Source of the DNA: an uncultured Prevotellaceae bacterium
Lineage (GTDB): Bacteria; Bacteroidota; Bacteroidia; Bacteroidales; Bacteroidaceae
Direction of reading: 5' to 3'
Assembly (NCBI GenBank): GCA_900320565.1
Contig: ONSR01000004.1
Coordinates: 9,647-73,646 of the forward strand
Length of the DNA stretch: 64,000 nt
The stretch's first letter is position 1; the number at the start of each line of letters is the position of its first letter. The notes under the pieces were generated by a model, which was not told the DNA's origin, made no database searches, and worked only from the letters and a program-made list of their open reading frames with translations. The position numbers and the translations under genes are program-made. Positions 7,080-58,910 of this stretch are shown piece by piece.

Positions 7080-7172
7080 TAAAAAAGATTGAAGATTATG
7101 GACTGCAAGCCCTAGATTTTTATGTCTAAATGCAAAGTTTGCTTTGCAAAAAAGCACGCAAAACAAAAACTT

Positions 7173-7200
7173 TAAACTCTAAACTCTAAACTTTCAACTT
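7173..7200. repeat. heptamer array (taaactc)x4 abutting the pckA promoter
   Basis: taaactc taaactc taaactt tcaactt. The same array occurs at 20700-20727. Confidence 0.9.
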
Positions 7201-7207
7201 TATTTCG

Positions 7208-9083: not shown

Positions 9084-9617
9084 TTACTGGAAGAACGAGA
9101 AGTTGACGCTGCCGTAACTGCGATGCTCGACGAAGCGGGGATGCTGGGAGAAATTGTTTGTCTTCCCATGTTCCAGCACAAAGAGTCCGCCTTCTTTGAG
9201 TAGGTTGCGGCTTAAGACAATGTCGGGCAGTTCAGGAAGTTGCGGCAGGGCGTAAGGCGGGTCGGCAAAGATGAAGTCGAACTGCTCACGGCACTTTGCC
9301 AGATACTGAAAGACATCACCACGGACGGGCAGTGCTGCTGTATCCTGCAACTTGTCGAGGAACTGCTTGATTAGGCGGTGATGACGTCCGTCGAGCTCAA
9401 CACTGATGACACGTCCGCAGCCACGACTGACGAGTTCCAACGTGATGCTGCCCGTACCAGAGAAGAGGTCGAGAGCCGTCGGCGCTTCGTCGAAGTCGAT
9501 ATAAGCCTGCAGAACATTGAAGAGATTCTCCTTCGCGAAGTCCGTCGTCGGACGTGCCGAGAAACTGCGAGGCACTTCGAAATGTCTGCCTTTGTATTTA
9601 CCTGTGATGATTCTCAT
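9084..9617 (-). CDS. rsmD: 16S rRNA (guanine966-N2)-methyltransferase RsmD
   Basis: MRIITGKYKGRHF..., LDLFSGTGS and FADPPY motifs. Start moved to the internal ATG (track start 9665 would overlap the upstream gene). Confidence 0.8.
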   Translation of the reverse strand: MRIITGKYKGRHFEVPRSFSARPTTDFAKENLFNVLQAYIDFDEAPTALDLFSGTGSITLELVSRGCGRVISVELDGRHHRLIKQFLDKLQDTAALPVRGDVFQYLAKCREQFDFIFADPPYALPQLPELPDIVLSRNLLKEGGLFVLEHGKTNNFSQHPRFVEHRSYGSVNFSFFQ

Positions 9618-11157: not shown

Positions 11158-12651
11158 ATGGCAATAAGTGAAGATTTAGGTGCCCTAATCAGGGAGAACT
11201 TCGACCATAAACCGACGAAAGAGCAGGAAAAAGCAATCATTTTGCTTGCCGACTTTTTGCTTTCAAGAGAGCGTGATACGGTTTTCCTCCTGAAAGGATA
11301 TGCCGGCACGGGCAAGACTTCTCTGCTGGCAGCCTTGGTGCGGACGCTCGGTATGTTGCAGCAAAGGGTCATGTTGCTTGCCCCAACCGGCAGGGCAGCC
11401 AAGGTGTTGTCGTCCTACGCGGGCGTTCCAGCATACACTATACACAGGAAGATCTACCGCCAGAAGTCTATCACGGACATGGATGTCTTTCAGAACGATG
11501 TCAACCTTAGGCAGGATACTCTGTTCATCGTAGATGAGGCGTCGATGATTGCGAATGATGCCCACGACACAACCGTCTTTGGTACTGGCCGTTTGCTCGA
11601 CGATTTGATGCACTACGTCTATTCCTGCGAGGGCTGCCGACTCGTGCTGGTGGGCGACACGGCACAGCTTCCGCCGGTCGGCGAGGAAGAGAGTCCGGCC
11701 CTGAGCCGCACGATGCTTGAGGGTTATGGGATGGAAGTGACGGAACTCCAGCTGACCCAAGTTGTCCGTCAACTCGAGGAGTCCGGCATTCTTTGGAACG
11801 CCACGATGCTGCGAAGCCTCATCCAGAACGACGAGATGTTCGAGTTTCCCAAGCTCAGAGGCAAGACCTTCCCCGACGTCAAAGCACTCCCCGGCGATGA
11901 ACTCATCGAGGCGCTCGAGCAGAGTTACCGTAAGTACGGAACCGACGGAACGATAGTCGTGACCCGAAGCAACAAGCGTGCCAATATATATAATAATGGT
12001 ATAAGAGCCCGCATCCTCGACCACGAAGAGGAACTCTCCAGCGGCGACCTGATTATGGTGGCGAAGAATAATTATTATTGGAATGACCGAGAACAGCAGC
12101 AAGGGGCAAGGGGCAAGGAGCAAGAGAACAGCAATCCTCTTGCCCCCTGCCCCTTGCCCCTTGCCCCTTTCTCCTTCATCGCCAACGGCGACATCGCGGT
12201 GGTTCGCCGACTTCGAAACGAGAGGTCGTTCTACGGATTCCGTTTCGCCGACGCCATCCTTGAGTTTCCCGACTACGACAACCGCGAGATGGAGGTCACC
12301 GTCCTGCTCGACACCCTGCAGAGCGAAGCGCCTGCCCTTACCCGACAACAGCAGGAAGCGCTCTTCCAGGGCGTTTGGGAGGACTATCCCGAACTGACGA
12401 ACCGACGCGACAGGATGAAGAAATTGCGCCAAGACCCCTACTACAACGCCCTGCAAATCAAGTATGCCTATGCCGTGACCTGTCATAAGGCTCAGGGCGG
12501 ACAATGGGAGCACGTCTATATCGACCAAGGTTACATCACCGAGGAGATGCTCACGCCCGACTATTTCCGCTGGCTCTACACAGCCATCACCCGCGCTACC
12601 GAACAGGTCTATCTCGTCAACTGGCCCGACTCGGCACTTTCCGACGCCTAA
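11158..12651 (+). CDS. RecD/Pif1-like ATP-dependent DNA helicase
   Basis: GYAGTGKT (Walker A), LFIVDEASMI (Walker B), VLVGDTAQLPPV, AVTCHKAQGGQWEHVYI. Confidence 0.85.
   Translation: MAISEDLGALIRENFDHKPTKEQEKAIILLADFLLSRERDTVFLLKGYAGTGKTSLLAALVRTLGMLQQRVMLLAPTGRAAKVLSSYAGVPAYTIHRKIYRQKSITDMDVFQNDVNLRQDTLFIVDEASMIANDAHDTTVFGTGRLLDDLMHYVYSCEGCRLVLVGDTAQLPPVGEEESPALSRTMLEGYGMEVTELQLTQVVRQLEESGILWNATMLRSLIQNDEMFEFPKLRGKTFPDVKALPGDELIEALEQSYRKYGTDGTIVVTRSNKRANIYNNGIRARILDHEEELSSGDLIMVAKNNYYWNDREQQQGARGKEQENSNPLAPCPLPLAPFSFIANGDIAVVRRLRNERSFYGFRFADAILEFPDYDNREMEVTVLLDTLQSEAPALTRQQQEALFQGVWEDYPELTNRRDRMKKLRQDPYYNALQIKYAYAVTCHKAQGGQWEHVYIDQGYITEEMLTPDYFRWLYTAITRATEQVYLVNWPDSALSDA
12096..12170. repeat. 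inverted heptamer arms (gcaaggg)n / (ccccttg)n inside the helicase gene
   Basis: Left arm 12099-12126 and right arm 12137-12167 are near-perfect reverse complements. Confidence 0.9.
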
Positions 12652-12693
12652 CCAGACGGGTCTCGTCACAAAAATTGACACGTCATCTTCGTT

Positions 12694-12759
12694 GCATATA
12701 CATGTATGTGCAATTGCATGTACATGTATATGCAATTGCAAGTACATGTACGTGCAATA
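12694..12759. repeat. 22-bp phased palindromic array, TACATGTA/TGCAATTGCA family (3 units)
   Basis: gcatatacatgtatgtgcaatt / gcatgtacatgtatatgcaatt / gcaagtacatgtacgtgcaata. A sister array lies at 32336-32401. Confidence 0.9.
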
Positions 12760-12876
12760 AACTTCCCCTGTCAAGTCGGATGCGACATCCTGCCGGAAGC
12801 GGTCATGAAATGTCGTTCCTTTACAAACAAAGGCAAAAAAATCGGCCCACATGATAGAAGTTACGGATATTTTTGC

Positions 12877-12884
12877 TAACTTTG
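12877..12884 (+). promoter_or_regulatory. -7 box TAacTTTG (rfbD operon)
   Basis: taactttg lies 27 nt upstream of the ATG at 12912. Confidence 0.55.
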
Positions 12885-12911
12885 TACACAGAATATAGTA
12901 TAAGAAAGGAA

Positions 12912-13883
12912 ATGAATATACTCGTTACAGGAGCGAACGGACAGTTGGGCAACGAGATGCGCATCGTGGCTAAGGACTCGGCGGACCATTACATCTTCAC
13001 CGACGTCACTCAGCAAGAAGGCGCAGAGACCACGTTCCTCGACATCACCGACCTCGACGCCATCCGCGCGATGGTCAAGGAGAACGACGTCCGCGCCATC
13101 GTAAACTGTGCCGCGTGGACTAACGTCGATGCAGCCGAGGCTCCCGAGAATCGTGCGCTCGTCGAGAAGCTCAATGCGACAGCCCCCGAGAACCTGGCTC
13201 GCGCCATGAAGGAAGTGGGCGGTTGGCTCGTGCAGATATCGACCGACTACGTGTTCGGCAAGGAGCCTTACAACACGCCTTGTCGCCCCGACCAGCAGGG
13301 CACACCGACCGGCGTCTATGGCGAAACGAAGAAGATGGGAGAGGAGCGAATCCAAAAAGTATTTAATGAAAAATTAAAAATTAAAAGTGAAAAATTAATA
13401 GCAAGCGAGGCAGAAGGTTCAATGGTCAATGGTCAATGGTCAATGGTCAATGGCGGCTACATCATCATCCGCACGGCCTGGCTCTACAGTGAATACGGCA
13501 AGAACTTCTGCAAGACGATGCTCAACCTCACGGCCACCAAGCCGCAGCTCAAGGTTGTCTTCGATCAATGCGGCACTCCGACGTATGCCCTCGACCTGGC
13601 ACGCGCGATACAAGTCATCCTCCAGAAGCCCGTGCAAGGCATCTACCACTTCTCGAACGAAGGCGTCTGCTCGTGGTACGACTTCACGCAGATGATTGCC
13701 CGCATCGCCGGACACAAGGACTGCGACATCCAGCCCTGCCTGTCTTCGGAATATCCAAGTCCCGTGAAGCGTCCCGCCTACTCCGTCCTCGACAAACGCA
13801 GCATCCGGGAAACCTTCGGCATCGAGGTTCCGTACTGGGTCGATTCACTCGAAAAATGCATTAAGAACATCATTGAAAATTGA
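12912..13883 (+). CDS. rfbD: dTDP-4-dehydrorhamnose reductase
   Basis: MNILVTGANGQLG start, YGETK, IIRTAWLYS. Carries a roughly 33-codon repeat insertion. Confidence 0.9.
   Translation: MNILVTGANGQLGNEMRIVAKDSADHYIFTDVTQQEGAETTFLDITDLDAIRAMVKENDVRAIVNCAAWTNVDAAEAPENRALVEKLNATAPENLARAMKEVGGWLVQISTDYVFGKEPYNTPCRPDQQGTPTGVYGETKKMGEERIQKVFNEKLKIKSEKLIASEAEGSMVNGQWSMVNGGYIIIRTAWLYSEYGKNFCKTMLNLTATKPQLKVVFDQCGTPTYALDLARAIQVILQKPVQGIYHFSNEGVCSWYDFTQMIARIAGHKDCDIQPCLSSEYPSPVKRPAYSVLDKRSIRETFGIEVPYWVDSLEKCIKNIIEN
13368..13453. repeat. mosaic element in rfbD: (aaaaatt)-type arm + spacer + (aatggtc)x4.7 arm
   Basis: gaaaaattaaaaattaaaagtgaaaaattaata ... aatggtcaatggtcaatggtcaatggtcaatgg. Confidence 0.9.
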
Positions 13884-13963
13884 AGATTGAACATTGAACA
13901 TTATTCCGACCCGAAGACTTAGGGCGCAGCCCAATGGTCAATGGTCAATGGTCAATGTTCAAT
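13872..13963. repeat. hairpin-type heptamer element across the rfbD stop and the rfbD-rfbC spacer
   Basis: Left arm attgaaa attgaag attgaac attgaac att, a 30-nt GC-rich spacer, right arm aatggtc x3 aatgttc aat. Confidence 0.9.
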
Positions 13964-13975
13964 AAAGAAAAACAT

Positions 13976-14536
13976 ATGGAAGTAATTAAGACCGCCATCG
14001 AAGGCGTACTTATCATAGAACCACGCATCTTCAGGGATGCACGCGGGTACTTCTTCGAATCATTCTCGCAAAGGGAGTTCGAAGAGAAAGTCGGCCCCAT
14101 CAACTTTGTACAAGATAACGAAAGCATGTCCTCTTATGGGGTGATGCGCGGACTGCACTTCCAGCGCCCACCCTACACGCAGAGCAAACTCGTTCGCTGC
14201 GTCAGGGGAGCCGTTCTGGACGTAGCCGTCGATATCCGCAAAGGGTCTCCGACCTACGGACAGCACGTCGCCGTCGAACTCACAGAAGAGAATCATCGTC
14301 AGTTCTTCATTTCGAAAGGCTTCGCCCATGGTTTTGCCGTACTGAGCGAGACTGCCGTCTTCCAGTACAAATGCGATGAGTTCTACCATCCCGAGGCAGA
14401 CGACGGTATCGCCATAACAGACCTAAGCCTCGGCATCGACTGGCGAATCCCCATGGAGAAGGCAATCCTGAGCGAAAAAGACACTAAGCATATTAACCTG
14501 AAGGACTTCGAAAGTCCGTTCACAGACCCTCTCTAA
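13976..14536 (+). CDS. rfbC: dTDP-4-dehydrorhamnose 3,5-epimerase
   Basis: FRDARGYFFESF, MRGLHFQ, KLVRCVRGAVLDVAVDIR. The track start at 13934 lies inside a heptamer array, so I trimmed it to MEVIKT. Confidence 0.9.
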   Translation: MEVIKTAIEGVLIIEPRIFRDARGYFFESFSQREFEEKVGPINFVQDNESMSSYGVMRGLHFQRPPYTQSKLVRCVRGAVLDVAVDIRKGSPTYGQHVAVELTEENHRQFFISKGFAHGFAVLSETAVFQYKCDEFYHPEADDGIAITDLSLGIDWRIPMEKAILSEKDTKHINLKDFESPFTDPL

Positions 14537-14555
14537 CTCCCCCTTAAAGGGGGAG
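14524..14555. repeat. left arm of the CCCCCTTAAAGGGGG palindromic element flanking the DUF559 gene
   Basis: agaccctctctaactcccccttaaagggggag is identical to 27911-27942. Confidence 0.9.
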
Positions 14556-14572
14556 AACACAGGCTGAAAACA

Positions 14573-14938
14573 ATGAAATGGCAAACGGCAGACACAATAG
14601 AATATGAACTTCTAAAAAGCCATTCAAAGGCAAAACGCGGCAATCAGACAGAAGCAGAGTCTGTTTTCTGGCAAATGGCGAAAGGCAGCGGACTAGGACA
14701 AAAGTGCAGAAGACAATACATTATCGGAGAGTATATCGTTGACTTCTTCTTTCGGCAATCAATGCTAATAGTGGAAATAGACGGAGGATACCACTTCACA
14801 GAAGAACAACAAAAGGAGGACATAACGAGACAAAACTGGTTGGAGCAAAAAGGATATAAAGTTCTGCGGTTCACCAACGAACAAGTCTTATATGACACAG
14901 ACAATATGATTAACGAATTAAAAAAGCATCTAATCTAA
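14573..14938 (+). CDS. DUF559 (Vsr-like endonuclease fold) protein
   Basis: YIVDFFF...LIVEIDGGYH...GYKVLRFTN pattern of DUF559. A/T-rich third codon positions, unlike the flanking rfb genes. Confidence 0.8.
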   Translation: MKWQTADTIEYELLKSHSKAKRGNQTEAESVFWQMAKGSGLGQKCRRQYIIGEYIVDFFFRQSMLIVEIDGGYHFTEEQQKEDITRQNWLEQKGYKVLRFTNEQVLYDTDNMINELKKHLI

Positions 14939-14939
14939 T

Positions 14940-16115
14940 ATGAGTAACAACAGTTCATCCCCCTTTAAGGGGGACAGAGGGGGTCTCAACATCGTCATAA
15001 CTGGTGGAGCCGGTTTCATCGGCAGTCACGTAGTACGCCTCTTTGTCAACAAGTACCCCGAATACAAGATCATCAACCTCGACAAGTTGACCTACGCAGG
15101 CAACCTCGCCAACCTCAAGGACATCGAGGACAAGCCCAACTACAAGTTCGTGAAGATGGACATCTGCGACTTCGACGCCTTCTACAAACTGATGCAGGAC
15201 GAGAAGATAGACGGCATCATCCACCTCGCAGCAGAGAGTCACGTGGACCGCAGCATCAAAGACCCCTTCACCTTTGCTCGCACGAATGTGATGGGAACAC
15301 TCTCCCTCCTGCAAGCTGCCAAGCTCTATTGGGAAAGCCTGCCAGAGCGGTACGAAGGCAAACGCTTCTATCACATCTCGACCGACGAGGTGTACGGCGC
15401 TCTGGAGATGACCAACCCGGAAGGCATAAAACCGCCTTTCACCACGACAGCCAGCAGTTCGGAGCATCATCTGGCATATGGCAAGGACTTCTTCTACGAG
15501 ACAACGAAGTACCAGCCACACAGTCCGTACTCCGCTTCGAAAGCCTCCAGCGACCACTTTGTCCGCGCTTTCCACGACACTTACGGCATGCCGACCATCG
15601 TCACGAACTGCTCCAACAACTACGGCCCCTATCAGTTCCCCGAGAAACTGATTCCTCTCTTCATCAACAACATACGCCATCGCAAGCCTCTTCCCGTTTA
15701 TGGTAAGGGCGAGAACGTGCGCGACTGGCTCTACGTCGAAGACCACGCTCGTGCCATCGACACGATCTTCCACAAGGGACAGATTGCCGAGACGTACAAC
15801 ATCGGCGGCTTCAACGAGTGGAAGAACATTGATATCATCAAGACTGTCATCAATACAGTTGACCGTTTGCTTGGCCGTCCAGAAGGAGCCGACATGGACC
15901 TCATCACATACGTCACAGACAGGCTTGGTCACGACGCACGCTACGCCATCGACTCCACCAAGCTGCAAAAGGAACTTGGATGGGAGCCGTCGCTCCAGTT
16001 CGAAGAGGGCATCGAAAAGACCGTCAAGTGGTACCTCGAGAACGAGGCTTGGATGGACAACATCACAAGCGGCGACTACGAGAAGTACTACGAGGAGATG
16101 TACAAGAATCGCTAA
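14940..16115 (+). CDS. rfbB: dTDP-glucose 4,6-dehydratase
   Basis: ITGGAGFIGSH, YSASKASSD and the long Bacteroidota-type form. The first roughly 16 codons are encoded by a repeat arm. Confidence 0.9.
   Translation: MSNNSSSPFKGDRGGLNIVITGGAGFIGSHVVRLFVNKYPEYKIINLDKLTYAGNLANLKDIEDKPNYKFVKMDICDFDAFYKLMQDEKIDGIIHLAAESHVDRSIKDPFTFARTNVMGTLSLLQAAKLYWESLPERYEGKRFYHISTDEVYGALEMTNPEGIKPPFTTTASSSEHHLAYGKDFFYETTKYQPHSPYSASKASSDHFVRAFHDTYGMPTIVTNCSNNYGPYQFPEKLIPLFINNIRHRKPLPVYGKGENVRDWLYVEDHARAIDTIFHKGQIAETYNIGGFNEWKNIDIIKTVINTVDRLLGRPEGADMDLITYVTDRLGHDARYAIDSTKLQKELGWEPSLQFEEGIEKTVKWYLENEAWMDNITSGDYEKYYEEMYKNR
14958..14986. repeat. right (inverted) arm of the element flanking the DUF559 gene
   Basis: tccccctttaagggggacagagggggtct is an imperfect reverse complement of the left arm. 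Confidence 0.85.
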
Positions 16116-16124
16116 GCAAAACAA

Positions 16125-17048
16125 GTGTTCATCACTTCCAGATTCAACCCCAAAGGCCTGCAGCTGCAACTGGTGTTGTTCCTGTTAGCGCCGCTCACGA
16201 TGATGACTTTCTCGCTTGGCTCCACGCGGGAAGTCTTCATCTCCCTTGTGGTGGCAGGTGTCTTGCTTGCCATCGCGCTGTGTGTCTGGGCTTTCCGTCT
16301 GAAGACAATCAGCGTCATGGACCAGGAACTGGAAGTGAAACATACCTGTCTACCCTTCCTGAAGCGTTACTATCGGCTGGCAGAATTCGACTCCTTTATT
16401 ATAGAAGAAGACGGAATATACGAGACGTTCTTCCTGCTCATCCAAGGGAAGCGGGCCGTCAAGCTGTCGTCAAAAATCTACAAGAACTATGCGGAGCTGA
16501 AGGAAGCGCTTTCGGTGGTCGGCCTTAAGGAATGGGGAACGGATGCCAATCGCGCAGTCGATTCGGTGTTTGCCAAAAGCCATCTCGCCGCCACCTTCGT
16601 GCTGTTCCTCTTAGTCCTCCTCTTTGTTGCAATTCCCATTATTGAGTATGTCGAAGACGGACAAGTGACGAAGAAGTCCTATTTCCTCATGTTAGTGGGC
16701 GGACTGATGTTTGTTCCCTTCTTCCTCTACGCGCTCTCCTGCTGCAAACGGCTCACCATCTGGCGCGGACATCTGGAGGTAAGGAGCCTGCTGACCCCGT
16801 GGAAGGTAGACTACTACTCACTCGACGACTTCGACTTCGCCTTGGAGGTCGTCACCCCATCGCACTTTGAGGAGGAGAAGTCGTTGTGGCTTGTCCGCGA
16901 CAACAAACTGGCTCTCAGCATTCCAAAGAACGTCTATGCAAACTACGATGTGTTGGAACATGCCATCGGCATCGTGCCGTCCGATACAATTAAGATGAGC
17001 TACTTCAAGAAGCTCAAATATCATTTAGGTAACACAATTGATTTCTGA
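16125..17048 (+). CDS. hypothetical integral membrane protein
   Basis: Several hydrophobic segments. The GTG start at 16125 is uncertain; ATG alternatives lie near 16200. Confidence 0.5.
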   Translation: MFITSRFNPKGLQLQLVLFLLAPLTMMTFSLGSTREVFISLVVAGVLLAIALCVWAFRLKTISVMDQELEVKHTCLPFLKRYYRLAEFDSFIIEEDGIYETFFLLIQGKRAVKLSSKIYKNYAELKEALSVVGLKEWGTDANRAVDSVFAKSHLAATFVLFLLVLLFVAIPIIEYVEDGQVTKKSYFLMLVGGLMFVPFFLYALSCCKRLTIWRGHLEVRSLLTPWKVDYYSLDDFDFALEVVTPSHFEEEKSLWLVRDNKLALSIPKNVYANYDVLEHAIGIVPSDTIKMSYFKKLKYHLGNTIDF

Positions 17049-17074
17049 GGAAGACATCAAAAGTAATACCCCCC

Positions 17075-17130: not shown

Positions 17131-19812
17131 TTATGCTGTGAGAAGCTCGATGAGTTTCTCGACGGCAGCATGTATGCCATCGGTGTTCTTGCCACCAGCT
17201 GTGGCGAAGTGAGGCTGGCCGCCGCCACCGCCTTGCATCAGTTGAGCAGCCTCGCGAATGTTCTTGCCGACGTTCACACCTGCTGCGACGGCACTATCCG
17301 AAGCTGCCGCCGTGAGCAAAGGCTTGCCGCCAGCAACGGAACCAATCACTACGATACTGTTCTCCACCTCTGCCCGGAGTTGGAAGGCAATGTCCTTAAC
17401 GAACTCCGGACCAAGTGGTGTGATAGCCTTCAAGACCTTGAAGCCGTTCACTTCCGTCTGCTTGGAGAGTATCTCTTTCTTGAGTTCAGCAGCCCTTTCG
17501 TGCATGATGTCTTCCACTTGCTTCTTGAGGTCAGCATTATCGTTGATGGCCTTCTGGATAGTTCCAACCAAGTCGGGAGCGTTATTGAAGAGCCCTCGCA
17601 GACCCGTTATCATGTCCTGCAACTTGTCCATCTGCTCTTCGACTGCCTTACCTGTTATGGCTTCGATACGACGCACACCTGCAGCCACACTGCTTTCCGA
17701 CATGATGCGAACCATACCGATGCAGCCTGTACTGCTTGCATGACAACCGCCGCAGAACTCGACACTCGTGCCGAACTGGATGACGCGCACCTTGTCGCCG
17801 TACTTCTCTCCGAAGAGGGCGATAGCGCCCAGCTTCTTGGCTTCCTCAATCGGCGTATCGCGATATTCCTGAAGAGGCAGGTTCTGACGGATGCGCTCAT
17901 TCACGAGGTGCTCCACCTCACGCAGCTGTTCGGGCGTCACCTTCTCGAAGTGAGAGAAGTCGAAGCGCAGGTAGTCGGGCGTCACAAGCGAGCCTTTCTG
18001 CTCCACATGGTCGCCGAGAACCTCCTTGAGGGCTTGGTCGAGGAGGTGCGTACAAGTGTGGTTGGCCTCGATAGCACGGCGACGCTCCACATCCACGCAA
18101 GCCATGAACTCGGCTTCAGGATTGCTTGGGATGCGCTCCAGCAAGTGAACACTTACGCCATTCTCTTTCTTGGTGTCAATCACCTTGATGGTCTCCTGCT
18201 CATTACAGATGACGCCTGAGTCGCCAACCTCGCCACCCATCTCTCCGTAGAAAGGAGTCTGGTCGAAGATTGCCTCGTAAACGACGCCTTTCTTCTGCTT
18301 CACCTCACGATACTTGACGATGTGGCAAGTGTATTCCGTGTAGTCGTAACCGACGAACTTCTGTTCTGATTGACCATTGACCATTGACGATTGACCATTA
18401 TTTTCTTCGGTGCCGGAATGGTCAATGGTCAATGATGAATGGTCAATGATGTGCCAATCGCCTGCCTCAACCTGGGCGGCATTGCGAGCACGCTCTTTCT
18501 GCTTCTGCATCTCAACGTTGAAGCCAGCCTCATCGACCGTTAGACCATTCTCGCGACAGATAAGTTCGGTGAGGTCCAAGGGGAAGCCATAGGTATCGAA
18601 AAGCGTGAAGGCTTTCTCGCCGGCAATCTCTGTCTTGCCTGCTGCCTTTGCCTCCTTCATCACACCATCCAGCAGTTTGATGCCTGTTTCGAGTGTGCGG
18701 AGGAAACTCTCTTCCTCTTCCTTCATCACTTTCGTAATGAGTTCCTTCTGACCTTCAAGTTCCGGATAGGTTGCTCCCATCTCCTGAATCAGGACGGGCA
18801 GCAGGCGGTAGATGAAGGCCTGCTTCTGTCCGAGGAAGGTATAGGCGTAGCGTACGGCGCGACGCAGAATGCGACGGATGACATAGCCGGCTTTTGCGTT
18901 GCCAGGAAGTTGACCGTCTGCGATGCTGAAAGCAATGGTGCGAAGATGGTCGGCCACTACTCTCATAGCCACATCGATGTCCTCCTTCTCGCCATAACGG
19001 AAGCCGCTGAGGTCGCCGATGGCTTTGATGATGGGCTGGAAGACGTCGGTATCGTAGTTGGACTGCTTGCCCTGAATGGCGCGAACCAAGCGTTCGAAGC
19101 CCATGCCGGTGTCGATAACGTTCATTCCAAGCGGTTCGAGATGTCCATCAGCCTTGCGCTCGTACTGCATGAAGACGATGTTCCAGATCTCGATAACCTG
19201 CGGGTCGTCCTTGTTGACGAGTTCGCGGCCAGGCACTTTAGCCTTTTCCTCAGCCGAACGACTATCGAGATGAATCTCCGAGCAAGGTCCGCAAGGACCT
19301 GTGTCGCCCATTTCCCAGAAGTTATCATGCTTGTTGCCGTTGATGATGTGGTCGGCCGGAACGTGCTTCAGCCAGTAGCCTGCAGCCTCATCATCGCGGA
19401 CAAGATTCTCTTCAGGACTGCCCTCGAAGACCGTCACATAGAGGTCCTTCGGGTCGAGCTTCAGCACATCAACGAGGTATTCCCACGCCATATCGATGGC
19501 TCCCTCCTTGAAATAGTCGCCGAACGACCAGTTGCCGAGCATCTCGAACATCGTGTGGTGATAGGTATCATGCCCGACTTCTTCCAGATCATTATGCTTT
19601 CCGCTGACACGCAGACACTTTTGGCTGTCCGCACGTCGGCGGGGTTCCGGGTCGCGAGTGCCAAGGATGATGTCCTTCCACTGGTTCATGCCGGCATTGG
19701 TAAACATCAGGGTCGGGTCATCCTTCACTACCATCGGGGCAGACGGAACAATCTTATGACCCTTCGACTCGAAGTACTTAAGGAACGAGTCGCGTATCTC
19801 ATTTGCTGTCAT
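17131..19812 (-). CDS. alaS: alanine--tRNA ligase
   Basis: [27 protein letters not shown] and the HTCTHLL editing motif. The first track ATG (19827) lies in a heptamer arm, so the second ATG is preferred. Confidence 0.95.
18369..18450. repeat. inverted heptamer arms (attgacc)n / (aatggtc)n inside alaS
   Basis: Arms at 18369-18399 and 18417-18450, separated by a 17-nt spacer. Confidence 0.9.
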
Positions 19813-19820
19813 AGTTCTAT

Positions 19821-19855
19821 AATTCATAATTCACAATTCATAATTCATAATCATT
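19821..19855. repeat. heptamer arm (aattcat)x5, left flank of the alaS/merR promoter region
   Basis: aattcat aattcac aattcat aattcat aatcatt. Confidence 0.9.
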
Positions 19856-19876
19856 CAATACGCATGAAAATGCGTG

Positions 19877-19884
19877 CAAATGTA
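19877..19884 (-). promoter_or_regulatory. -7 box TAcaTTTG (alaS)
   Basis: Reverse complement of caaatgta, upstream of the alaS start. Confidence 0.55.
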
Positions 19885-19937
19885 CGAAATATTTATGAAT
19901 TATGTGCTATGATTTGTAATTTAAGAATTATTTTTTG

Positions 19938-19945
19938 TATTTTTG
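19938..19945 (+). promoter_or_regulatory. -7 box TAttTTTG (merR-like gene)
   Basis: tatttttg lies 46 nt upstream of the ATG at 19992. Confidence 0.5.
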
Positions 19946-19951
19946 CAACAG

Positions 19952-19984
19952 AATTATGCATTATGAATTATAAATTATGAATTG
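19952..19984. repeat. heptamer arm (atgaatt)-type, right flank, inverted relative to 19821-19855
   Basis: aattatg cattatg aattata aattatg aatt. Confidence 0.9.
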
Positions 19985-20341: not shown

Positions 20342-20433
20342 CCCAGTTAAGTTGCCAAAGATAGCGTGTTAAGTTTGCAAAGATGGCACGTTAAGTTTGC
20401 AAAGATGGCACGTTAAGTTTGCAAGGATGGCGT
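20342..20433. repeat. 22-bp phased array, GCACG family (about 4 units)
   Basis: ...gcgtgttaagtttgcaaagatg / gcacgttaagtttgcaaagatg / gcacgttaagtttgcaaggatg. Confidence 0.9.
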
Positions 20434-20505: not shown

Positions 20506-20580
20506 TGGGCGCTGAGGGATTCGAACCCCCGACCCTCTGCTTGTAAGGCAGACGCTCTGAACCAGCTGAGCTAAGCGCCC
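20506..20580 (-). tRNA. tRNA-Val (anticodon TAC)
   Basis: The reverse complement GGGCGCTTAGCTCAGCTGGTTCAGAGCGTCTGCCTTACAAGCAGAGGGTCGGGGGTTCGAATCCCTCAGCGCCCA folds as a cloverleaf. Anticodon loop is CTTACAA. Confidence 0.95.
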
Positions 20581-20618: not shown

Positions 20619-20699
20619 CGACAATCCCGCGACACATGCAAGTTTTTCGCCAAAAAAGTTTAACAGAAAAGCACGAAGAGTTAATAAAAGCAGAATTTC

Positions 20700-20727
20700 T
20701 AAACTCTAAACTCTAAACTCTAAACTT
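20700..20727. repeat. heptamer array (taaactc)x4 abutting the DUF2723 promoter
   Basis: taaactc x3 then taaactt. The array ends 7 nt before the -7 box, as at pckA. Confidence 0.9.
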
Positions 20728-25691: not shown

Positions 25692-25780
25692 CAGTACCTC
25701 GTCAGTACCACCACGGGGAAACTCCAGTACCACCGTAGGGAAACTCCAGTACCACCGTGGGAGTACTGGAGTTCCCCTAT
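25692..25780. repeat. 22-bp phased array, CAGTACCACC family
   Basis: cagtaccaccacggggaaactc / cagtaccaccgtagggaaactc / cagtaccaccgtgggagtactg, plus half units at both ends. Confidence 0.9.
25738..25776. terminator. hairpin between convergent queG and PHP genes
   Basis: gggaaactccagtac ... gtactggagttccc, a 14-bp stem formed by the last units of a 22-bp array. Confidence 0.55.
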
Positions 25781-25806: not shown

Positions 25807-26523
25807 TCATGCTCCAATATACGATAGGAAGCGGGCTGGGAAGTAGTTCATGATGAGCTCGTCGGGGAACTCTGTCTCCTGCAGCAACGGCCAGATGAAG
25901 CTGTAGTCGGCTATGGCGTAACTGATGTGGGCGTCGCTGCTCAGCACGACTGGCACTTCGTAACGCTTGCAAAGGCGCAGTATCTCGAGGTTGTTCCTGA
26001 GGGCCGTCTCCTTGTTTCGATTGGGATTCAGGCTGCTGTTGTTTATCTCGAGCAAGGTTTTCGACTCTTTTGCTGCCAGGACAATCGGCTCGAACAGGAG
26101 TTCTGCGGTGCCGTCGCCAGGATGCGAGATGATTTGCGTCCACGGATTACGGATAGCGTTTATCATGCCTTGGGTGTTCTCCTCAACGGTGCCGCCTTCC
26201 CAGCAGAGCAGATGAATGCCTGCGATACGGATATCGAGCATCTTGTAGTAATATTCATCGAGGTCGAGCGTGCCCTTTGTATCAAGAATGTTCAGCTCGG
26301 CTCCAAGCAGGAGACGCAGGTTTCCAAACCGTCGGGGCACCACATGCAGGTTGCGGAAATAGATGGGATTGCACGTTCCGGGAATGCCTGGAGCATGTTC
26401 CGTGATGCCAAGAATATCGAGGTTCTTTTGCTGAGCTGCTGCCACCATTTCCTGCAAGGAGCTGTAGGCGTGACCGCTCATTACGGTGTGGGTGTGGACG
26501 TCAAGTTTCAATTCATGTTTCAT
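25807..26523 (-). CDS. PHP-domain phosphatase (YcdX-like)
   Basis: LDVHTHTVMSGHAYS metal-binding start. ATGA overlap with the upstream gene. Confidence 0.75.
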   Translation of the reverse strand: MKHELKLDVHTHTVMSGHAYSSLQEMVAAAQQKNLDILGITEHAPGIPGTCNPIYFRNLHVVPRRFGNLRLLLGAELNILDTKGTLDLDEYYYKMLDIRIAGIHLLCWEGGTVEENTQGMINAIRNPWTQIISHPGDGTAELLFEPIVLAAKESKTLLEINNSSLNPNRNKETALRNNLEILRLCKRYEVPVVLSSDAHISYAIADYSFIWPLLQETEFPDELIMNYFPARFLSYIGA

Positions 26524-28184
26524 AATACACAATTCATAGTATCAGTGAAGGTTTTGCCTTCAAATGTAATAGCATAAGCGTGGAGCATCAGCCTTTCGCC
26601 AGGCTTGCCATAAAGTCTGTCGCCGAGTATCGGGTTGTTAAGTCCTTGTGGATGAGCGCAGTGAACGCGAAGCTGATGGGTGCGTCCGGTGATAGGACTG
26701 AGCTCGAGGAAAGCATGACCCTCCCTGTTTGCAAGGACTTTGTAATGTGTTTCGGCAGGCTTCCCATGCTCTCTATCCACCATCTGTCGAGGGCGGTCGT
26801 CGATATCGGGACGCAGAGGAAGGTTTATAGTTCCCTCTTGTCCGACAGGCATTTCCCTTTCGAGCAAGGCATGATAGACCTTGTGGATCTGTCGATGCAG
26901 GAAGAGGTCTTGCAACTTGTGGTACTTCTCTTCGGTCAACGCGACAAGCATCAAGCCACTTGTATCCATGTCGAGTCGATGCACAATGAGGGGGCCTTTT
27001 ACCGATGAAATGGCGCTTTTTATTGCATCTTGCACGTTTGGAAGGCCGTCCTTGCCTGGCACGGAAAGCATCCCTGCAGGCTTACTCACCACAGCCAACT
27101 CGCCATTATTATATATAATGTGTAGCTGAGCAAGCAGCTTCTCTTGGTCTGCAAGCAAAGGATTGGGTTCTACATCGAGCCCTTCGAGCATGTGCGTGAG
27201 GATGGGAAGGCATTTGCTTCGGCAAGCAGGATAGTAATGTCCGTCGAGTCTGACCTCATTTGTTGGCGAAGCTCCCACCCAGAACTCAGCCATACAAAGT
27301 GGTTGCAGACCTTCTTTATAAGCCGCTTGGAGCAATCGTGGTGCGCAACACTCCCCAGCCCCAGATGGTGGAATGGCTGGAGAGAAGAGGTTCAGCAACG
27401 ACTTCTCCTCGCCTCGTGCATTGAGGAAGGTGAACTGGCGGAACAACCATTGCTGCAAGGCGATGCTGCGCTCATGCCTTTCTTGCTGCAGCTGGTCTAT
27501 CTCTGCTTGTTGTTCTCGCAGATGGGCTTCATCATCAAACACACGTTGTTCCCAAGCTTGCCTCAGTCTGCGATACTCTGCCCTCTGGTGCTGGCTCTCT
27601 TTAATAAGGTTTTGTTTATTTTTTCCCAATTCATCGACAGAAATCGACTCTCGCTGAGCATCACGCATGGCCTTGCTTTGTCGCATAAACTCCCTGTAGG
27701 CTGCAAGTTCTTCGTCCATCTTCGCTCGCAAAGGGCTCGGGCTTAATGAACTCTCGAGATGTGCAATCCGACGATTGATGTCGCTGATGGCAGCCTCTTC
27801 CTCCTGGAAATAACAGCCCGGAGACATGAGGTCGAAGACTGGCGGAACGAAGTATTCGTGCTGGGTTTTGCCGTCAAGTGTGCCGGAGAAGGCAGCGAGA
27901 AACGAAAGCGAGACCCTCTCTAACTCCCCCTTAAAGGGGGAGGACACAGAATAAGAAGTCTCCCCTTTAAGGGGAGATTTAGAGGGGTCTACTATGAGTA
28001 CGCCGAGCATCTTTCCCTTTTGCAACTCGTCGTGCCACTCCTTTCGCTGACTGATATAGTGCTGCACCTCGTTTGCAGCGGCAACGCAGAGTGGGTGTGG
28101 TTCGTAGCAGAAGGGAAAGGTAAACTGCTTCGGAGCGTTTGTCGTCAGGACGCGAGGCGGTAAGGGATGTATAGTTACAGCCAT
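26520..28184 (-). CDS. RluA-family pseudouridine synthase, long form
   Basis: HRLDMDTSGLMLVA catalytic motif and HQLRVHCAH. Carries an 80-bp palindromic insertion. Confidence 0.8.
   Translation of the reverse strand: MAVTIHPLPPRVLTTNAPKQFTFPFCYEPHPLCVAAANEVQHYISQRKEWHDELQKGKMLGVLIVDPSKSPLKGETSYSVSSPFKGELERVSLSFLAAFSGTLDGKTQHEYFVPPVFDLMSPGCYFQEEEAAISDINRRIAHLESSLSPSPLRAKMDEELAAYREFMRQSKAMRDAQRESISVDELGKNKQNLIKESQHQRAEYRRLRQAWEQRVFDDEAHLREQQAEIDQLQQERHERSIALQQWLFRQFTFLNARGEEKSLLNLFSPAIPPSGAGECCAPRLLQAAYKEGLQPLCMAEFWVGASPTNEVRLDGHYYPACRSKCLPILTHMLEGLDVEPNPLLADQEKLLAQLHIIYNNGELAVVSKPAGMLSVPGKDGLPNVQDAIKSAISSVKGPLIVHRLDMDTSGLMLVALTEEKYHKLQDLFLHRQIHKVYHALLEREMPVGQEGTINLPLRPDIDDRPRQMVDREHGKPAETHYKVLANREGHAFLELSPITGRTHQLRVHCAHPQGLNNPILGDRLYGKPGERLMLHAYAITFEGKTFTDTMNCVL
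27911..27990. repeat. 80-bp palindromic element (CCCCCTTAAAGGGGG type) inside the rluA-family gene
   Basis: agaccctctctaactcccccttaaaggggga, a 17-nt loop, then tctcccctttaaggggagatttagaggggtct. Confidence 0.9.
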
Positions 28185-28732
28185 AGCACACCCTCCGGTC
28201 CCATATTAAAGAGCAAATCTACGATGCTGAGGTCGGGCAAGAACCCGTGTCGCGAAGCAAACATCTGGTAGTAGGGAGAATACTCTCTCCTGCCCTCCGT
28301 TAAAGGGGGAGCGTCCTCGAAAGCAATGGTTCGCGTAACGGGCTTCTCAATATCGAGCAGCGAGGCAACCAACATCATCAGTTCCTCGTTGAAATCGGCC
28401 ATGAAATCCCACTTCTTTTCGTAAAAAGGGGCGAATTCATCGGCATAATATTCAAAGAAAGGTGACTGCCTGTAGCTGCTCTCGAGGGCAACCCAATGCT
28501 GATGCCTCCAGTTGCCGTGATCGCTGATTCGCACGTCGCGCATCAAAGTCTTGCCTTCCATCTTCACAACAGGAACAGTGAGGGCAAGCGCTCCATTCGG
28601 GCTGTCTATCCAACAACGATTGCGAAGGGTTTGCTTCACGAAGTGGTCACAAACCTCGAGCCGCACTTCATCACTGCGATAGTAAGCGCTATAGTGAGAA
28701 ACAGGAGCGAGATAACAGCAAGGCAGAACCAT
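28175..28732 (-). CDS. WbqC family protein
   Basis: MVLPCCYLAPVSHYSAYY...HWVALESSYRQSPFFEYY pattern. Track ORF trimmed because it ran over lepB. Confidence 0.7.
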   Translation of the reverse strand: MVLPCCYLAPVSHYSAYYRSDEVRLEVCDHFVKQTLRNRCWIDSPNGALALTVPVVKMEGKTLMRDVRISDHGNWRHQHWVALESSYRQSPFFEYYADEFAPFYEKKWDFMADFNEELMMLVASLLDIEKPVTRTIAFEDAPPLTEGRREYSPYYQMFASRHGFLPDLSIVDLLFNMGPEGVLWL

Positions 28733-28790
28733 TGAACATTGACAATTGAAACATTGACCGTTTCTCCCCCTAAAGGGGGTTAGGGGGTCT
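28729..28790. repeat. composite element: heptamer arm + palindromic module, lepB-wbqC spacer
   Basis: ccattgaac attgaca attgaaa cattgacc, then tctccccctaaagggggttagggggtct. Confidence 0.8.
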
Positions 28791-32298: not shown

Positions 32299-32335
32299 CA
32301 TGGGGGATGAACAAACACGCCACGCAAAATTCTTT

Positions 32336-32401
32336 GCAGATACATGTATATGCAATTGCAAGTACATGTATGTGCAATTGCATATACATGTATGTGCAAT
32401 C
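32336..32401. repeat. 22-bp phased palindromic array, TACATGTA/TGCAATTGCA family (3 units)
   Basis: gcagatacatgtatatgcaatt / gcaagtacatgtatgtgcaatt / gcatatacatgtatgtgcaatc. Confidence 0.9.
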
Positions 32402-37003: not shown

Positions 37004-37090
37004 AATTCATAATTCATAATTCATAGTTAGGGACGCCTGCAAACAGGGCGAAAGAAATAATTATGAATTGATAACTATGAATTATGAATT
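37004..37090. repeat. hairpin-type (aattcat)n / (atgaatt)n element between convergent genes
   Basis: Left arm 37004-37029, GC-rich spacer, right arm 37058-37090. Confidence 0.9.
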
Positions 37091-37104
37091 AAGTACTGCT
37101 TCTT

Positions 37105-37869
37105 TCACTTGTTCAGCGTCCACAAAGACATTCCGAACAGGTTTATCATCACGGATAACGTCTTCCGTCCAATTTTCCGAACAGGTTTATCATCACGGAT
37201 AACGTCTTCCGTCCAATTGGGTTCATTGAAGAACTCATTGGGTTGGAAGACGTGCAGTTTATAGAACTTCGTCAGGTTTAGGCGAAGTTCTGTTGTTATT
37301 GCGGGCTTGAGGGAGAAGGGTTTATCCTGCTTCCAAGCGATAGCTTGCACGCAAAGGCGCTCCAAATCGTTGACCTGCGAGCGGTCGAAAGCCTCAACGA
37401 AGAGCTTGCTGTTGGGTTCTATGATGCCCGAGAAACGCAGTCGCCAGCTCGCACCCTCCGCGCTCATCAGCGAGACTTGCATGTAGTAGTTGCTGTCGTT
37501 CACAAGGTACGACTCGAAGCCCGTGCTGGAGATCTCCTTCACCTCATCAGGTAAGAAAGACAGATAGAGGTTGAGCCGCTCCCCTTCCCTGCGTTCGAGG
37601 GGCTTGGGCTTGAACGTTATCGGCTTCTCTTCAGACTCTTCCGGTTCCTTTGCTTTGGCGGCTTGACTGGGGAGAGGCTTCTCCCTTTCAATCGTGTTCA
37701 CCTTTCCGATATCGTATTCTTCGTTGCCAACAACTACTACATCTTGCTTGAGCATCGGTATCTCGAACCCGTCCTCATCCTCCACGAGGACAATGTTCTT
37801 CCCTTGGAAGCCACTTACCGTGCCTCCTCCCACCTCGGAGAGGAAGCGCACTTTATCGCCTATCTTCAT
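37105..37869 (-). CDS. DUF2027 domain protein; 3' end altered by a 44-bp tandem duplication
   Basis: MKIGDKVRFLSEVGGGTVSGFQGKNIVLVEDEDGFEIPM is a typical DUF2027 start. The last roughly 24 codons are read out of the ancestral frame. Confidence 0.7.
   Translation of the reverse strand: MKIGDKVRFLSEVGGGTVSGFQGKNIVLVEDEDGFEIPMLKQDVVVVGNEEYDIGKVNTIEREKPLPSQAAKAKEPEESEEKPITFKPKPLERREGERLNLYLSFLPDEVKEISSTGFESYLVNDSNYYMQVSLMSAEGASWRLRFSGIIEPNSKLFVEAFDRSQVNDLERLCVQAIAWKQDKPFSLKPAITTELRLNLTKFYKLHVFQPNEFFNEPNWTEDVIRDDKPVRKIGRKTLSVMINLFGMSLWTLNK
37131..37218. repeat. perfect 44-bp direct tandem duplication
   Basis: ttccgaacaggtttatcatcacggataacgtcttccgtccaatt occurs twice back to back (37131-37174 and 37175-37218). 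Confidence 0.95.
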
Positions 37870-40253: not shown

Positions 40254-40335
40254 GCATGCCTAGTTGCTCAACTAGGCACGTCTAGTTTGCCATTTAGACA
40301 CGTCTAGTTTGCTAATTAGACGTGCCTAATTTTTT
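40254..40335. repeat. 22-bp phased array, GCACG family (about 3.5 units)
   Basis: gcatgcctagttgctcaactag / gcacgtctagtttgccatttag / acacgtctagtttgctaattag / acgtgcctaatttttt. Confidence 0.9.
40274..40335 (+). terminator. probable queA terminator built from a 22-bp array
   Basis: Outer stem aggcacgtcta / tagacgtgcct followed by aatttttt. Confidence 0.55.
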
Positions 40336-46975: not shown

Positions 46976-47098
46976 CTAAGTTCGTAAACACGGCACGTCG
47001 AATTGCTCAACAAGGTACGTCGATTTGCTCAACAAGGTACGTCGATTTGCCCAACAAGGTACGTCGATTTGCCCAAAGCGGCACGTCGATTTGTTCCA
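46971..47098. repeat. 22-bp phased array, GCACG family (about 5 units)
   Basis: gcacgtcgaattgctcaacaag / gtacgtcgatttgctcaacaag / gtacgtcgatttgcccaacaag / gtacgtcgatttgcccaaagcg / gcacgtcgatttgttcca. Confidence 0.9.
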
Positions 47099-52154: not shown

Positions 52155-52245
52155 TCATCCCCCTATAGGGGAAGAGCCAACGCCCTATAGGGGAATGCTC
52201 ACTCCCCTATAGGGGATTTAGCACTCCTCCCTAAGGGGATTTTTA
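52155..52245. repeat. 22-bp phased array of CCCCTATAGGGG palindromes (4 units)
   Basis: Palindrome centres at 52165/66, 52187/88 and 52209/10, plus a degenerate fourth near 52232. Confidence 0.9.
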
Positions 52246-58461: not shown

Positions 58462-58552
58462 AACATCCCCTATAGGGGAAATGCAAACGCCCTATAGGGG
58501 AATGACAATCCCTCCATAGGGGAATCGCAATTCCCCTATAGGGCGTTGAACG
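58462..58552. repeat. 22-bp phased array of CCCCTATAGGGG palindromes (4 units)
   Basis: Centres at 58472/73, 58494/95, 58516/17 and 58538/39. Unit aaacgccctataggggaatg nearly matches unit caacgccctataggggaatg at 52178. Confidence 0.9.
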
Positions 58553-58826: not shown

Positions 58827-58910
58827 CTTACTTGAGTATCTTTTTGCCGTTAATGATGTTGACGCCTTTCTGCATCTTGTTCATGCGCTGACCTGCAAGG
58901 TTGTAGATGG
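58807..58910. repeat. about 104-bp dispersed duplicate (partner 63199..63302): CTD end, stop codon, start of small ORF
   Basis: Collinear by eye with roughly one mismatch per ten bases over the first 85 bp or so. Confidence 0.8.

Follow-up and report, generated by a model that had tools for sequence, protein, structure and literature searches.

How an essential gene can carry a hairpin built of 7-nt repeats and still be read from end to end is the question raised by alaS in a 64,000-nt stretch of DNA from an uncultured Prevotellaceae bacterium (contig ONSR01000004.1 of assembly GCA_900320565.1, positions 9,647 to 73,646; referred to below as the window, to which all coordinates apply). The gene (17131-19827, minus strand) encodes an alanine--tRNA ligase (AlaRS) of 898 amino acids and was assigned from its open reading frame (ORF), from the Pfam domains tRNA-synt_2c, tRNA_SAD and DHHA1 on homologues, and from matches to AlaRS structures in the PDB with E values down to 1e-133. 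It is full length, and its flanks are highly conserved on both sides of a hairpin cassette that lies between the conserved GDW and FVGYD blocks of the protein. Our analysis indicates that this cassette is probably a tolerated selfish or neutral repeat in a permissive interdomain linker, comparable to the Rickettsia palindromic elements (RPEs) and shuffled between strains by recombination.

On the plus strand, positions 18369-18399 read ATTGACC ATTGACC ATTGACG ATTGACC ATT, i.e. (ATTGACC)x4.4. A spacer of 17 nt follows (18400-18416, ATTTTCTTCGGTGCCGG), and then the inverted array AATGGTC AATGGTC AATGATG AATGGTC AATGATG (18417-18451). Tandem Repeats Finder reported one period-7 array per arm, with 4.4 and 4.6 copies, as well as a period of 14 with 2.0 copies at 100% identity (18424-18451), while a repeat search returned two arms of 31 nt each, 90% complementary and separated by 17 nt. 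Direct reading and both programs thus agree with the arrays, spacer and coordinates that had been described in the first-pass annotation, made from the letters of the window. With up to 2 mismatches allowed, 19 copies of the 14-mer double unit ATTGACCATTGACC were counted in the window where 0.48 are expected, and 0 of 100 shuffled sequences reached 19. In the mRNA sense the element folds with -36.3 kcal/mol (z = -4.97), and none of 200 shuffles was as stable.

In gene sense (minus strand throughout) the hairpin consists of a 5' arm, CATCATT GACCATT CATCATT GACCATT GACCATT (18417-18451), a 17-nt loop, CCGGCACCGAAGAAAAT, which encodes SGTEEN (18400-18416), and a 3' arm, AAT GGTCAAT CGTCAAT GGTCAAT GGTCAAT (18369-18399). 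In two other alleles (L086 and L087) the loop has 14 nt and one substitution. Rfam at gathering thresholds returned one tRNA only and no known RNA family over the element, and BLAST of the element against plasmid and phage collections gave no match. No terminator-like call was made at the hairpin, where the downstream sequence is CAGAACAGAAG, and the resemblance of TTGACC to a sigma-70-like promoter amounts to consensus noise, since the promoters of this organism are of another type. An intragenic inverton was rejected because the spacer is just 14-17 nt long and the loop has the same orientation in all 12 sequenced alleles.

Since 7 and 3 are coprime, a heptamer array runs through all three frames, and (GACCATT)n therefore meets TGA once per three units in any frame, as had been claimed before. 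In the complementary orientation, (GGTCAAT)n, all frames are free of stops. The 5' arm of the alaS cassette is in the 'closed' orientation, whose pure form contains TGA at every third unit, and the 3' arm is in the 'open', stop-free one. Because one arm of such a hairpin is always in the closed orientation, each of the six frames of a pure 4-unit hairpin is interrupted by one stop or more. In the frame used by alaS, the pure element would read IDH*PLTIDH in the 5' arm. The observed copy differs from it by 3 nt, which change the stop, one Pro and one Trp each to Ser. The stop is removed by the variant unit CATCATT (plus strand AATGATG; 18431-18437, minus strand), in which the would-be in-frame TGA has become TCA (codon 18438-18436). 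The earlier reading of this codon, as the single unit in the dangerous frame, was correct. In the 3' arm a second variant unit (plus strand ATTGACG, 18383-18389) turns TGG (Trp) into TCG (Ser). The closed arm ends exactly at the next would-be in-frame TGA, and the 898-aa ORF reads through the whole element as first annotated.

The same annotation went further and took the variant unit as a specific substitution, kept by selection for an open frame. The frame pattern does support that ribosomes read the element, and the claim is upheld with refinements. CATCATT differs from GACCATT at two positions, although a single change would suffice to remove the stop, and it is identical to the 7-mer at the junction (18445-18451), which is formed by native His-Ile codons and the first ATT of the array. 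The empty alleles L088 and L001 likewise have the native CAC ATC codons. Variant unit and junction together form a perfect 14-nt direct repeat, CATCATTGACCATT x2. Since the two changes reproduce the adjacent 7-mer exactly, the variant unit is probably a templated copy, either slipped or made by gene conversion of the junction. Two independent point mutations are judged the less likely origin. In an essential gene, only copies with an open frame survive to be observed, and the open frame is thus no independent sign that selection continues. A frame constraint is separately supported by allele L093, in which exactly 21 nt, amounting to three units or seven codons, are missing between two direct copies of GACCATTC. 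All indel variants of the cassette are multiples of 3 nt, with 3 nt in the loop (L086, L087) and 21 nt in the arm (L093).

The cassette is an insertion relative to most orthologues. Among the 120 closest database proteins (91-97% identical), the segment from GDW to FVGYD has 10-11 residues in 101, with VVINDQLEQQ, VVISDQLEQK or HIVSEQATEQQ as examples, compared with 32 residues in the window. Around 84% of these closest AlaRS alleles, including those of the nearest relatives of this strain, are without any cassette. L081, a strain of the same species that is collinear with the window over ~24 kb at ~96% DNA identity, lacks exactly 66 nt (22 codons) at the linker in a pairwise MAFFT alignment with the window. 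The extra sequence lies at 18381-18446 (minus strand), its edges being ambiguous by a few nt because the repeat unit resembles the native linker. Of 76 species-level Bacteroidales orthologues none carries a homologous segment, which speaks against the objection that orthologues might have a non-repetitive counterpart of the same length. Four of the orthologues have unrelated, non-hairpin extra residues at the linker (L025 with 27 aa, L044 with 14, L015 with 8 and L002 with 7), which indicates that the linker tolerates length changes generally.

The same cassette recurred in nine further clusters of proteins, from independent assemblies (P0001, P0002, P0022, P0031, P0034-36, P0054 and P0109) and in the DNA of L086 (an NCBI metagenome-assembled genome), L087 and L093. 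Alleles differ in the loop, with Ser for Thr and one Asn fewer. At least ten independent assemblies from ENA, NCBI and other records carry the cassette, always in frame, so that the possibility of an assembly artefact, raised together with the first description, is not borne out. Those of the checks suggested in the first description that could be run came out in its favour, with the refinement that the cassette is polymorphic within the species and not lineage-defining.

The insert comprises residues ~459-490 of the protein. In the comparison with PDB entries, residues 8-451 of the window AlaRS are matched by the E. coli 1-441 fragment and residues 5-456 by the Aquifex N453 fragment, while the archaeal full-length AlaRS aligns only from residue 520. 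The insert thus begins ~3-8 residues past the end of the crystallised catalytic fragments and, given that these end at 451-456, lies in the connection to the next domain, that is, in an interdomain linker. From the general architecture of AlaRS, we presume that this linker leads from the aminoacylation/tRNA-recognition fragment into the beta-barrel ahead of the editing domain.

How did this strain come by the cassette? In a neighbour-joining tree of AlaRS built with the linker removed, the window AlaRS nests deep in the 'empty' VVINDQLEQQ clade, far from the group that the other cassette bearers form. In a sliding comparison, the window alaS is 95-99% identical to that of L081 over most of its length, but at and near the cassette its best match is L087 (91-95%) and not its own clade. 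Tree, sliding identity and alignment delimit an approximate recombination patch of linker, cassette and ~22 nt upstream (18358-18475, minus strand). A second mosaic tract, at nt 1699-1880 of the gene (~17948-18129 of the window), is 98% identical to L088 and L001 and 85-92% identical to L081, which points to frequent short-patch recombination in alaS. Recombination is evidently anchored in the conserved codons for GDW and FVGYD. From these comparisons we infer that the strain would have obtained linker and cassette as an allele, by short homologous recombination, rather than by a new insertion.

The alaS linker holds other hairpins as well. At least four other, unrelated hairpin cassettes are found there in sister lineages. 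L082 and L091 carry a (GGAGCAA)4-loop-(CTTGCCC)4 hairpin of -49.7 kcal/mol that encodes VFVKEQGARSKEQENSNPLAPCPLPLAPEEQK. L083 and L089 have a GC-rich double palindrome, GACCCCTCT…TCTCCCCTTAAAGGGGAGA…TCCCCCTTTAAGGGGGAGACAGAGGGGGTC, of -46.5 kcal/mol, of which L090 has a decayed version and L092 a related variant. The linker of L084 is another palindrome (-67.6 kcal/mol), and that of L085 consists of 15 residues without a hairpin. Throughout the hairpin alleles the total linker length is 93-96 nt. Native linker residues are gone in the palindrome alleles, which argues for replacement and not for simple insertion. L093 has lost most of one arm and folds with -18.7 kcal/mol.

Elements of the same kind are found in other genes and between genes. 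The window contains 14 arrays with a period of 7 and 0 with periods of 5, 6 or 8-11, and several other Bacteroidales loci are likewise biased towards period 7, with other A/T-rich units. Arrays of the ATTGACC unit occur at five loci of the window, alaS included. The RmlD gene (12873-13883, plus strand) contains heptamer arrays at 13365-13453 that are read as NEKLKIKSEKL…GSMVNGQWSMVNG, where the part GSMVNGQWSMVNG comes from the same heptamer as in alaS, and its TGA stop codon is supplied by a further array (13872-13902). The same heptamer recurs at 58911-58943 in the gene of a 1368-aa protein (58828-62934, minus strand), where it reads NSKWSMVNGQS. QueA (38901-40241, plus strand) has three array-encoded segments (39138-39200, 39346-39374 and 39848-39924) and a length of 446 aa, compared with 322 positions of the Pfam model. 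Intergenic period-7 hairpins lie at 13871-13963 and 37004-37091, and heptamer arrays adjoin palindrome halves at 28731-28790 and 39138-39200. Hairpins of heptamer arrays also extend beyond this bacterial lineage: (ATTGACC)3 was found in 12 IMG/VR viral contigs (L096-L107) with a GC content from 32% to 61%, and three of them (L097, L098 and L101) contain ~200-nt hairpins of several different heptamer arrays. The loop of the GCAAGGG family, described next, had no match in the viral contigs.

A GCAAGGG hairpin, (GCAAGGG)n-GAGAACAGCAATCCTC-(CTTGCCC)n, lies at 12099-12169 in a PIF1-type helicase gene (11158-12651, plus strand) and is translated in frame as QQQGARGKEQENSNPLAPCPLPLAP. The hairpin in the alaS linker of L082 (L082 3348-3422) agrees with it in loop, orientation and frame, and the occurrence of one hairpin in PIF1 and in the alaS of another strain implies that such hairpins are copied between loci. 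We compared the loop between KNNYYW and FIANGD in 120 close PIF1 homologues. Its native form has 16 residues (TEREQAANGVNPDSMA); otherwise it is occupied by more than 10 different cassettes. The GCAAGGG family is present there as 1, 2 or 3 array-plus-loop modules, giving 31, 45 or 59 residues, with 42 nt added per module. A copy of the native flank GAGAACAG lies in the hairpin loop and an inverted one at the far end, and this pattern suggests that the PIF1 hairpin may have been born locally, by slippage and fold-back copying. A third protein, a pseudouridine synthase (26520-28184, minus strand), carries a double-palindrome cassette at 27903-27987, translated in frame as DPSKSPLKGETSYSVSSPFKGELERV. 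At exactly this position L081 has a heptamer array, (AATGGTA)n, and in PIF1, too, L081 has a different element at the position of the window's cassette. The same peptides are encoded in different host proteins: EQGAR[S/G]KEQENSNPLAPCPLPLAP in AlaRS and PIF1, and DPSKSPLKGE…SPFKGE in AlaRS and the pseudouridine synthase. The alaS cassette thus belongs to a lineage-wide population of period-7 and palindromic elements that occupy intergenic DNA, 5' untranslated regions (5'UTRs) and, where tolerated, the loops of housekeeping proteins.

Around the start of alaS itself, the divergent 5'UTRs of alaS and merR (19809-19983) contain heptamer arrays directly upstream of the start codons. Their unit varies by strain (ATGAATT, AAATCGT, AAATAGT or none in L081-L088), and the two arrays of the window are mutually complementary. 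The predicted alaS start (MNYRT…) is probably situated inside the 5'UTR array, the conserved start being likely the downstream ATG (MTANEIRD). Arrays of (AAACTCT)n at 7167-7201 and 20698-20726 stand immediately upstream of the Bacteroidetes -7 box (TTTCGTACCTTTGCA). Conservation of the array at 20698 in L001, L081, L082, L083 and L088 hints at a role connected with the promoter.

A larger palindromic element is found between rmlC and rmlB. Here a GC-rich double palindrome (14525-14985) encloses, between its halves, an ORF of 121 aa (14573-14938, plus strand) for a DUF559/Vsr-like endonuclease (PF04480, E = 2e-28). L081, L001 and L088 lack the whole 440-nt unit, and L083 has it at the same place. 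It gives rmlC a new stop, and rmlB not only a new start but also a new N-terminus (MSNNSSSPFKGDRGG). Possibly the short palindromic cassettes derive from this element as miniature versions.

We propose that a small non-autonomous hairpin would be transcribed and translated together with alaS, adding ~22 polar residues to a linker of ~10 residues that is tolerant of length change. Such a cassette would need no function of its own and could persist as harmless at this position, while the frame constraint would set the variant unit, the end of the closed arm and the 21-nt length steps. Homologous recombination in the conserved flanks would then shuffle alleles of linker plus cassette between strains, and this strain would have imported its copy from a cassette-bearing allele circulating in the same genus. 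A high density of elements in the lineage, combined with strong filtering in genes, would concentrate the survivors in few loops. The cassette could first have been made by slippage and fold-back template switching, by ectopic copying as in the GCAAGGG family, or by both. For the ATTGACC hairpin we lean towards copying from another locus over local birth, since its unit is common to four other loci of the window and the stepwise intermediates of a local origin would be lethal.

Several observations weigh against a merely tolerated repeat. The comparison of filled and empty sites revealed no target-site duplication, and native residues are partly replaced. No transposase was identified, though no systematic genome search for transposases was made. 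No second locus was found to hold the complete ATTGACC hairpin with its loop, which is so far seen in alleles of alaS only, and the mobility of this family is deduced from the shared heptamer and from the behaviour of the GCAAGGG family. The placement in a surface loop derives from the ends of the crystal fragments, the AlphaFold2 model of the 898-aa protein on a shallow alignment (25 sequences, 91-99% identity) being too poor to support it (mean predicted local distance difference test score 44.9, predicted template modelling score 0.26). Likewise, translation of the cassette is deduced from frame conservation. Finally, at least five different hairpin cassettes occur at the alaS linker and none elsewhere in AlaRS. 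This concentration, at the linker as in the PIF1 loop, is higher than one would readily expect from simple random insertion plus filtering and may point to targeting or to hairpin-stimulated turnover.

Among the alternatives, the one that survives best has the cassette born in place, with the native linker amplified by 7-nt slippage and then inverted-duplicated by fold-back within alaS. It builds on the resemblance of the native linker to the repeat unit, the native ATC AAT GAC CAG of the empty allele and ATC ATT GAC CAT of the cassette differing at 2 of 12 positions. The PIF1 hairpin, with its inverted flank and its one to three modules, shows signs that would fit a local birth, and heptamers are the most abundant class of long simple-sequence repeats (unit of 5-11 nt) in most genomes of a survey, as it is summarised in PMC4679880. 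However, the arrays at four other loci of the window and in the 12 viral contigs show that ATTGACC is not specific to alaS, and by our own estimate a 6-of-7 match of some heptamer rotation to a 30-nt linker would be met ~0.2-0.5 times by chance. A stepwise origin within the gene is also hard to conceive if intermediates with an in-frame TGA or a frameshift are lethal in alaS. We therefore regard a birth in place as unlikely.

Somewhat more doubtful, though the chief rival as to how the cassette is maintained, is a targeted turnover, in which the linker is a preferred target of some lineage-specific mechanism or a resident hairpin provokes breaks and ectopic repair, for example through an endonuclease acting on hairpins or cruciforms or by cleavage of the SbcCD type. 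The alaS cassette would then be one state of an actively exchanged site, with hairpins overwriting one another. The variety of occupants speaks in its favour: at least five unrelated cassettes at alaS (ATTGACC, GCAAGGG, two or three GC-rich palindrome types and the 15-aa variant), more than 10 types in one PIF1 loop of natively 16 aa, and different elements of the window and L081 at identical positions of PIF1 and the pseudouridine synthase. The replacement of native linker residues in several cassettes, the endonuclease gene nested in a palindromic element, and the heptamer arrays that abut palindrome halves would also fit. Yet ordinary homologous recombination across the conserved flanks accounts for the shuffling of a few ancient cassette types among backbones, with few independent insertions needed, and the non-hairpin length variation in other genera shows that the site is simply permissive. 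No conserved target motif or target-site duplication turned up, and the DUF559 link concerns a single locus. A common motif at the alaS, PIF1 and pseudouridine synthase sites was looked for, and the vague TGG…TTC(N)TCG resemblance that emerged was unconvincing. With the same reserve we view a broader version, according to which an undescribed active system in rumen Bacteroidales would write and exchange short hairpin cassettes, both heptamer-array hairpins and GC-rich double palindromes, at defined loops in housekeeping proteins and in 5'UTRs, perhaps via palindromic elements with a DUF559/Vsr-like endonuclease. Heptamer hairpins would in this case be left behind, or produced, when breaks are repaired by slippage and fold-back synthesis, and the alaS linker would be one hypervariable cassette site among many and more than a passive landing place.

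It is improbable that the hairpin is retained for a function, be it as a selected translational pause that lets the catalytic domain fold ahead of the emergence of the editing domain, as a signal for mRNA processing or stability, or as a peptide that tunes AlaRS. The fold is very stable (-36 kcal/mol, z = -5), the alternative cassettes are also strong (-30 to -68 kcal/mol) and similar in total length (93-96 nt), and the position matches the boundary of the autonomous catalytic fragment. On the other hand, the cassette is dispensable in view of the ~84% of closest alleles without one. The cassettes have neither their sequence nor the peptide they encode in common, the one-armed L093 (-18.7 kcal/mol) and the decayed L090 persist, the hairpin has no terminator-like signature, and similar cassettes are located in many unrelated proteins and in intergenic DNA. 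An artefact of assembly or sequencing, or a pseudogene or untranslated segment (removed by bypassing or splicing), is hardly credible: short-read assemblers can mishandle hairpins and tandem repeats and the source is of metagenome type, but the cassette recurs with allele-specific differences and always in frame in the independent assemblies, within a full-length gene that is conserved on both sides and with indels in multiples of 3 nt.

Returning to the tolerated repeat, its closest known counterparts are the RPEs, palindromic repeats that are inserted in frame in housekeeping genes and whose translation adds peptide compatible with the function of the protein (Ogata et al. 2000, Science 290:347, as presented in PMC10969869). 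Like RPEs, the elements described here are short, hairpin-forming palindromic repeats in intergenic DNA and in frame in unrelated genes, with several families coexisting and with one element encoding the same peptide in different proteins. The alaS cassette keeps to the frame of its conserved gene, leaves the ORF intact and is absent from most orthologues. The two differ in size and host, as RPEs are ~100-150 bp of complex sequence in an obligate intracellular alphaproteobacterium and the alaS element has 66-82 nt (82 nt of tandem heptamers, outside the size range of RPEs) in free-living rumen Bacteroidales. They differ also in the arms, which in alaS are tandem heptamers with a unit length that is not a multiple of 3. 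We know of no description of many alternative cassettes per protein loop in one genus for RPEs. By analogy, the cassette appears to work like an RPE without being a member of the ten Rickettsia families, from which it is set apart by size, arms and host and not by direct homology comparison.

The cassette also fits the description of heptanucleotide simple-sequence repeats. Such repeats are known as the cyanobacterial short tandemly repeated repetitive (STRR) sequences and as the TAACTGA repeats of Beggiatoaceae, Cyanobacteria and a few Bacteroidetes (PMC4679880). Long simple-sequence repeats (LSSRs) were surveyed by Mrazek et al. (2007), as cited in the same article, where the cause of the period-7 bias is given as unexplained and polymerase slippage as a proposal (PMC4679880). 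Shared features are the head-to-tail period-7 arrays of 3-6 copies at many loci, often upstream of starts or promoters, and the patchy phylogeny. In contrast to STRR sequences and LSSRs, which are mainly intergenic direct repeats of one or few units, the present elements use many heptamers, form hairpins of inverted arrays and are translated in conserved proteins. The STRR2 unit, TTGGTCA, would be one base off the ATGGTCA rotation of the alaS unit and may serve as a lead.

With REP/REPIN sequences (repetitive extragenic palindromes) and MITEs (miniature transposable elements with inverted repeats) such as ERIC, BOX, Correia and Nezha, the cassettes share that they are small, multi-copy, non-autonomous hairpins which occasionally are intragenic with an open frame (PMC10969869, PMC3184786). 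Unlike MITEs they have no distinct terminal inverted repeats and no target-site duplication, and their insertion often replaces native residues; unlike REP sequences they have A/T-rich arms of tandem heptamers without a GTAG/CGTC-type tag, and no RAYT was seen with them, although the genome was not searched for one. Fast-evolving repeats within ORFs that add low-complexity, probably disordered peptide are also a trait of the tandem repeats in Borg proteins, which are reportedly direct repeats with a unit length divisible by three. The alaS cassette differs from these by its 7-nt unit, by three frames read in turn with the stops edited out, by length changes only in 21-nt steps and by inverted arrays. 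The searchable literature yielded no account, for Bacteroidales, of heptamer-hairpin cassettes in frame or of cassette loops that are hypervariable, which is not proof of novelty.

Selfish palindromic DNA in essential genes has so far been a textbook curiosity of Rickettsia, and our finding suggests that it occurs in abundant free-living gut and rumen Bacteroidales too. The twist added here is that arms of 7-nt repeats are read in all three frames in turn, so that stops must be edited out. While a single insertion in alaS can be explained, the many alternative hairpin cassettes at defined loops are the more surprising part. The AlaRS linker and the PIF1 loop, with many alternative cassettes within a genus, amount to a natural experiment on insertion tolerance. 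In practical terms, the cassettes inflate the apparent strain diversity of marker genes, create recombination-prone hairpins and can confuse gene callers, for instance by new starts and stops; they are also usable as strain-typing markers. Should the turnover be targeted, a new mobile or repair-associated mechanism would become directly testable.

Repeats and insertions of other kinds were noted in the window. Eight intergenic tandem arrays have a period of 22 nt and 2.6-4.9 copies: 12692-12758, 20346-20431, 25703-25762, 32334-32400, 40260-40321, 46987-47093, 52159-52242 and 58467-58543. Most of the inspected units contain a short palindrome, e.g. TTGCA…TGCAA or CCCCTATAGGGG, and the array near 20395 differs from L081 by one unit in copy number. 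These arrays may resemble the 22-23-bp 'BrickBuilt' minisatellite of Porphyromonas gingivalis. Relative to L081, the window has a 948-nt insertion at 16125-17072, between alaS and rmlB, with an ORF of 307 aa of predicted membrane-like sequence that had no Pfam match. Conversely, L081 (~9165-9275) has 110 extra nt beside a tRNA (window 20506-20580, minus strand), with a duplicated tRNA 3' end, as is typical of an integrative-element scar or att site. A perfect tandem duplication of 44 nt (2.0 copies, 100%; 37131-37218) is located near the 3' end of a minus-strand ORF (37105-37869), and because 44 is not a multiple of 3 this duplication would alter the C-terminus of the encoded protein.

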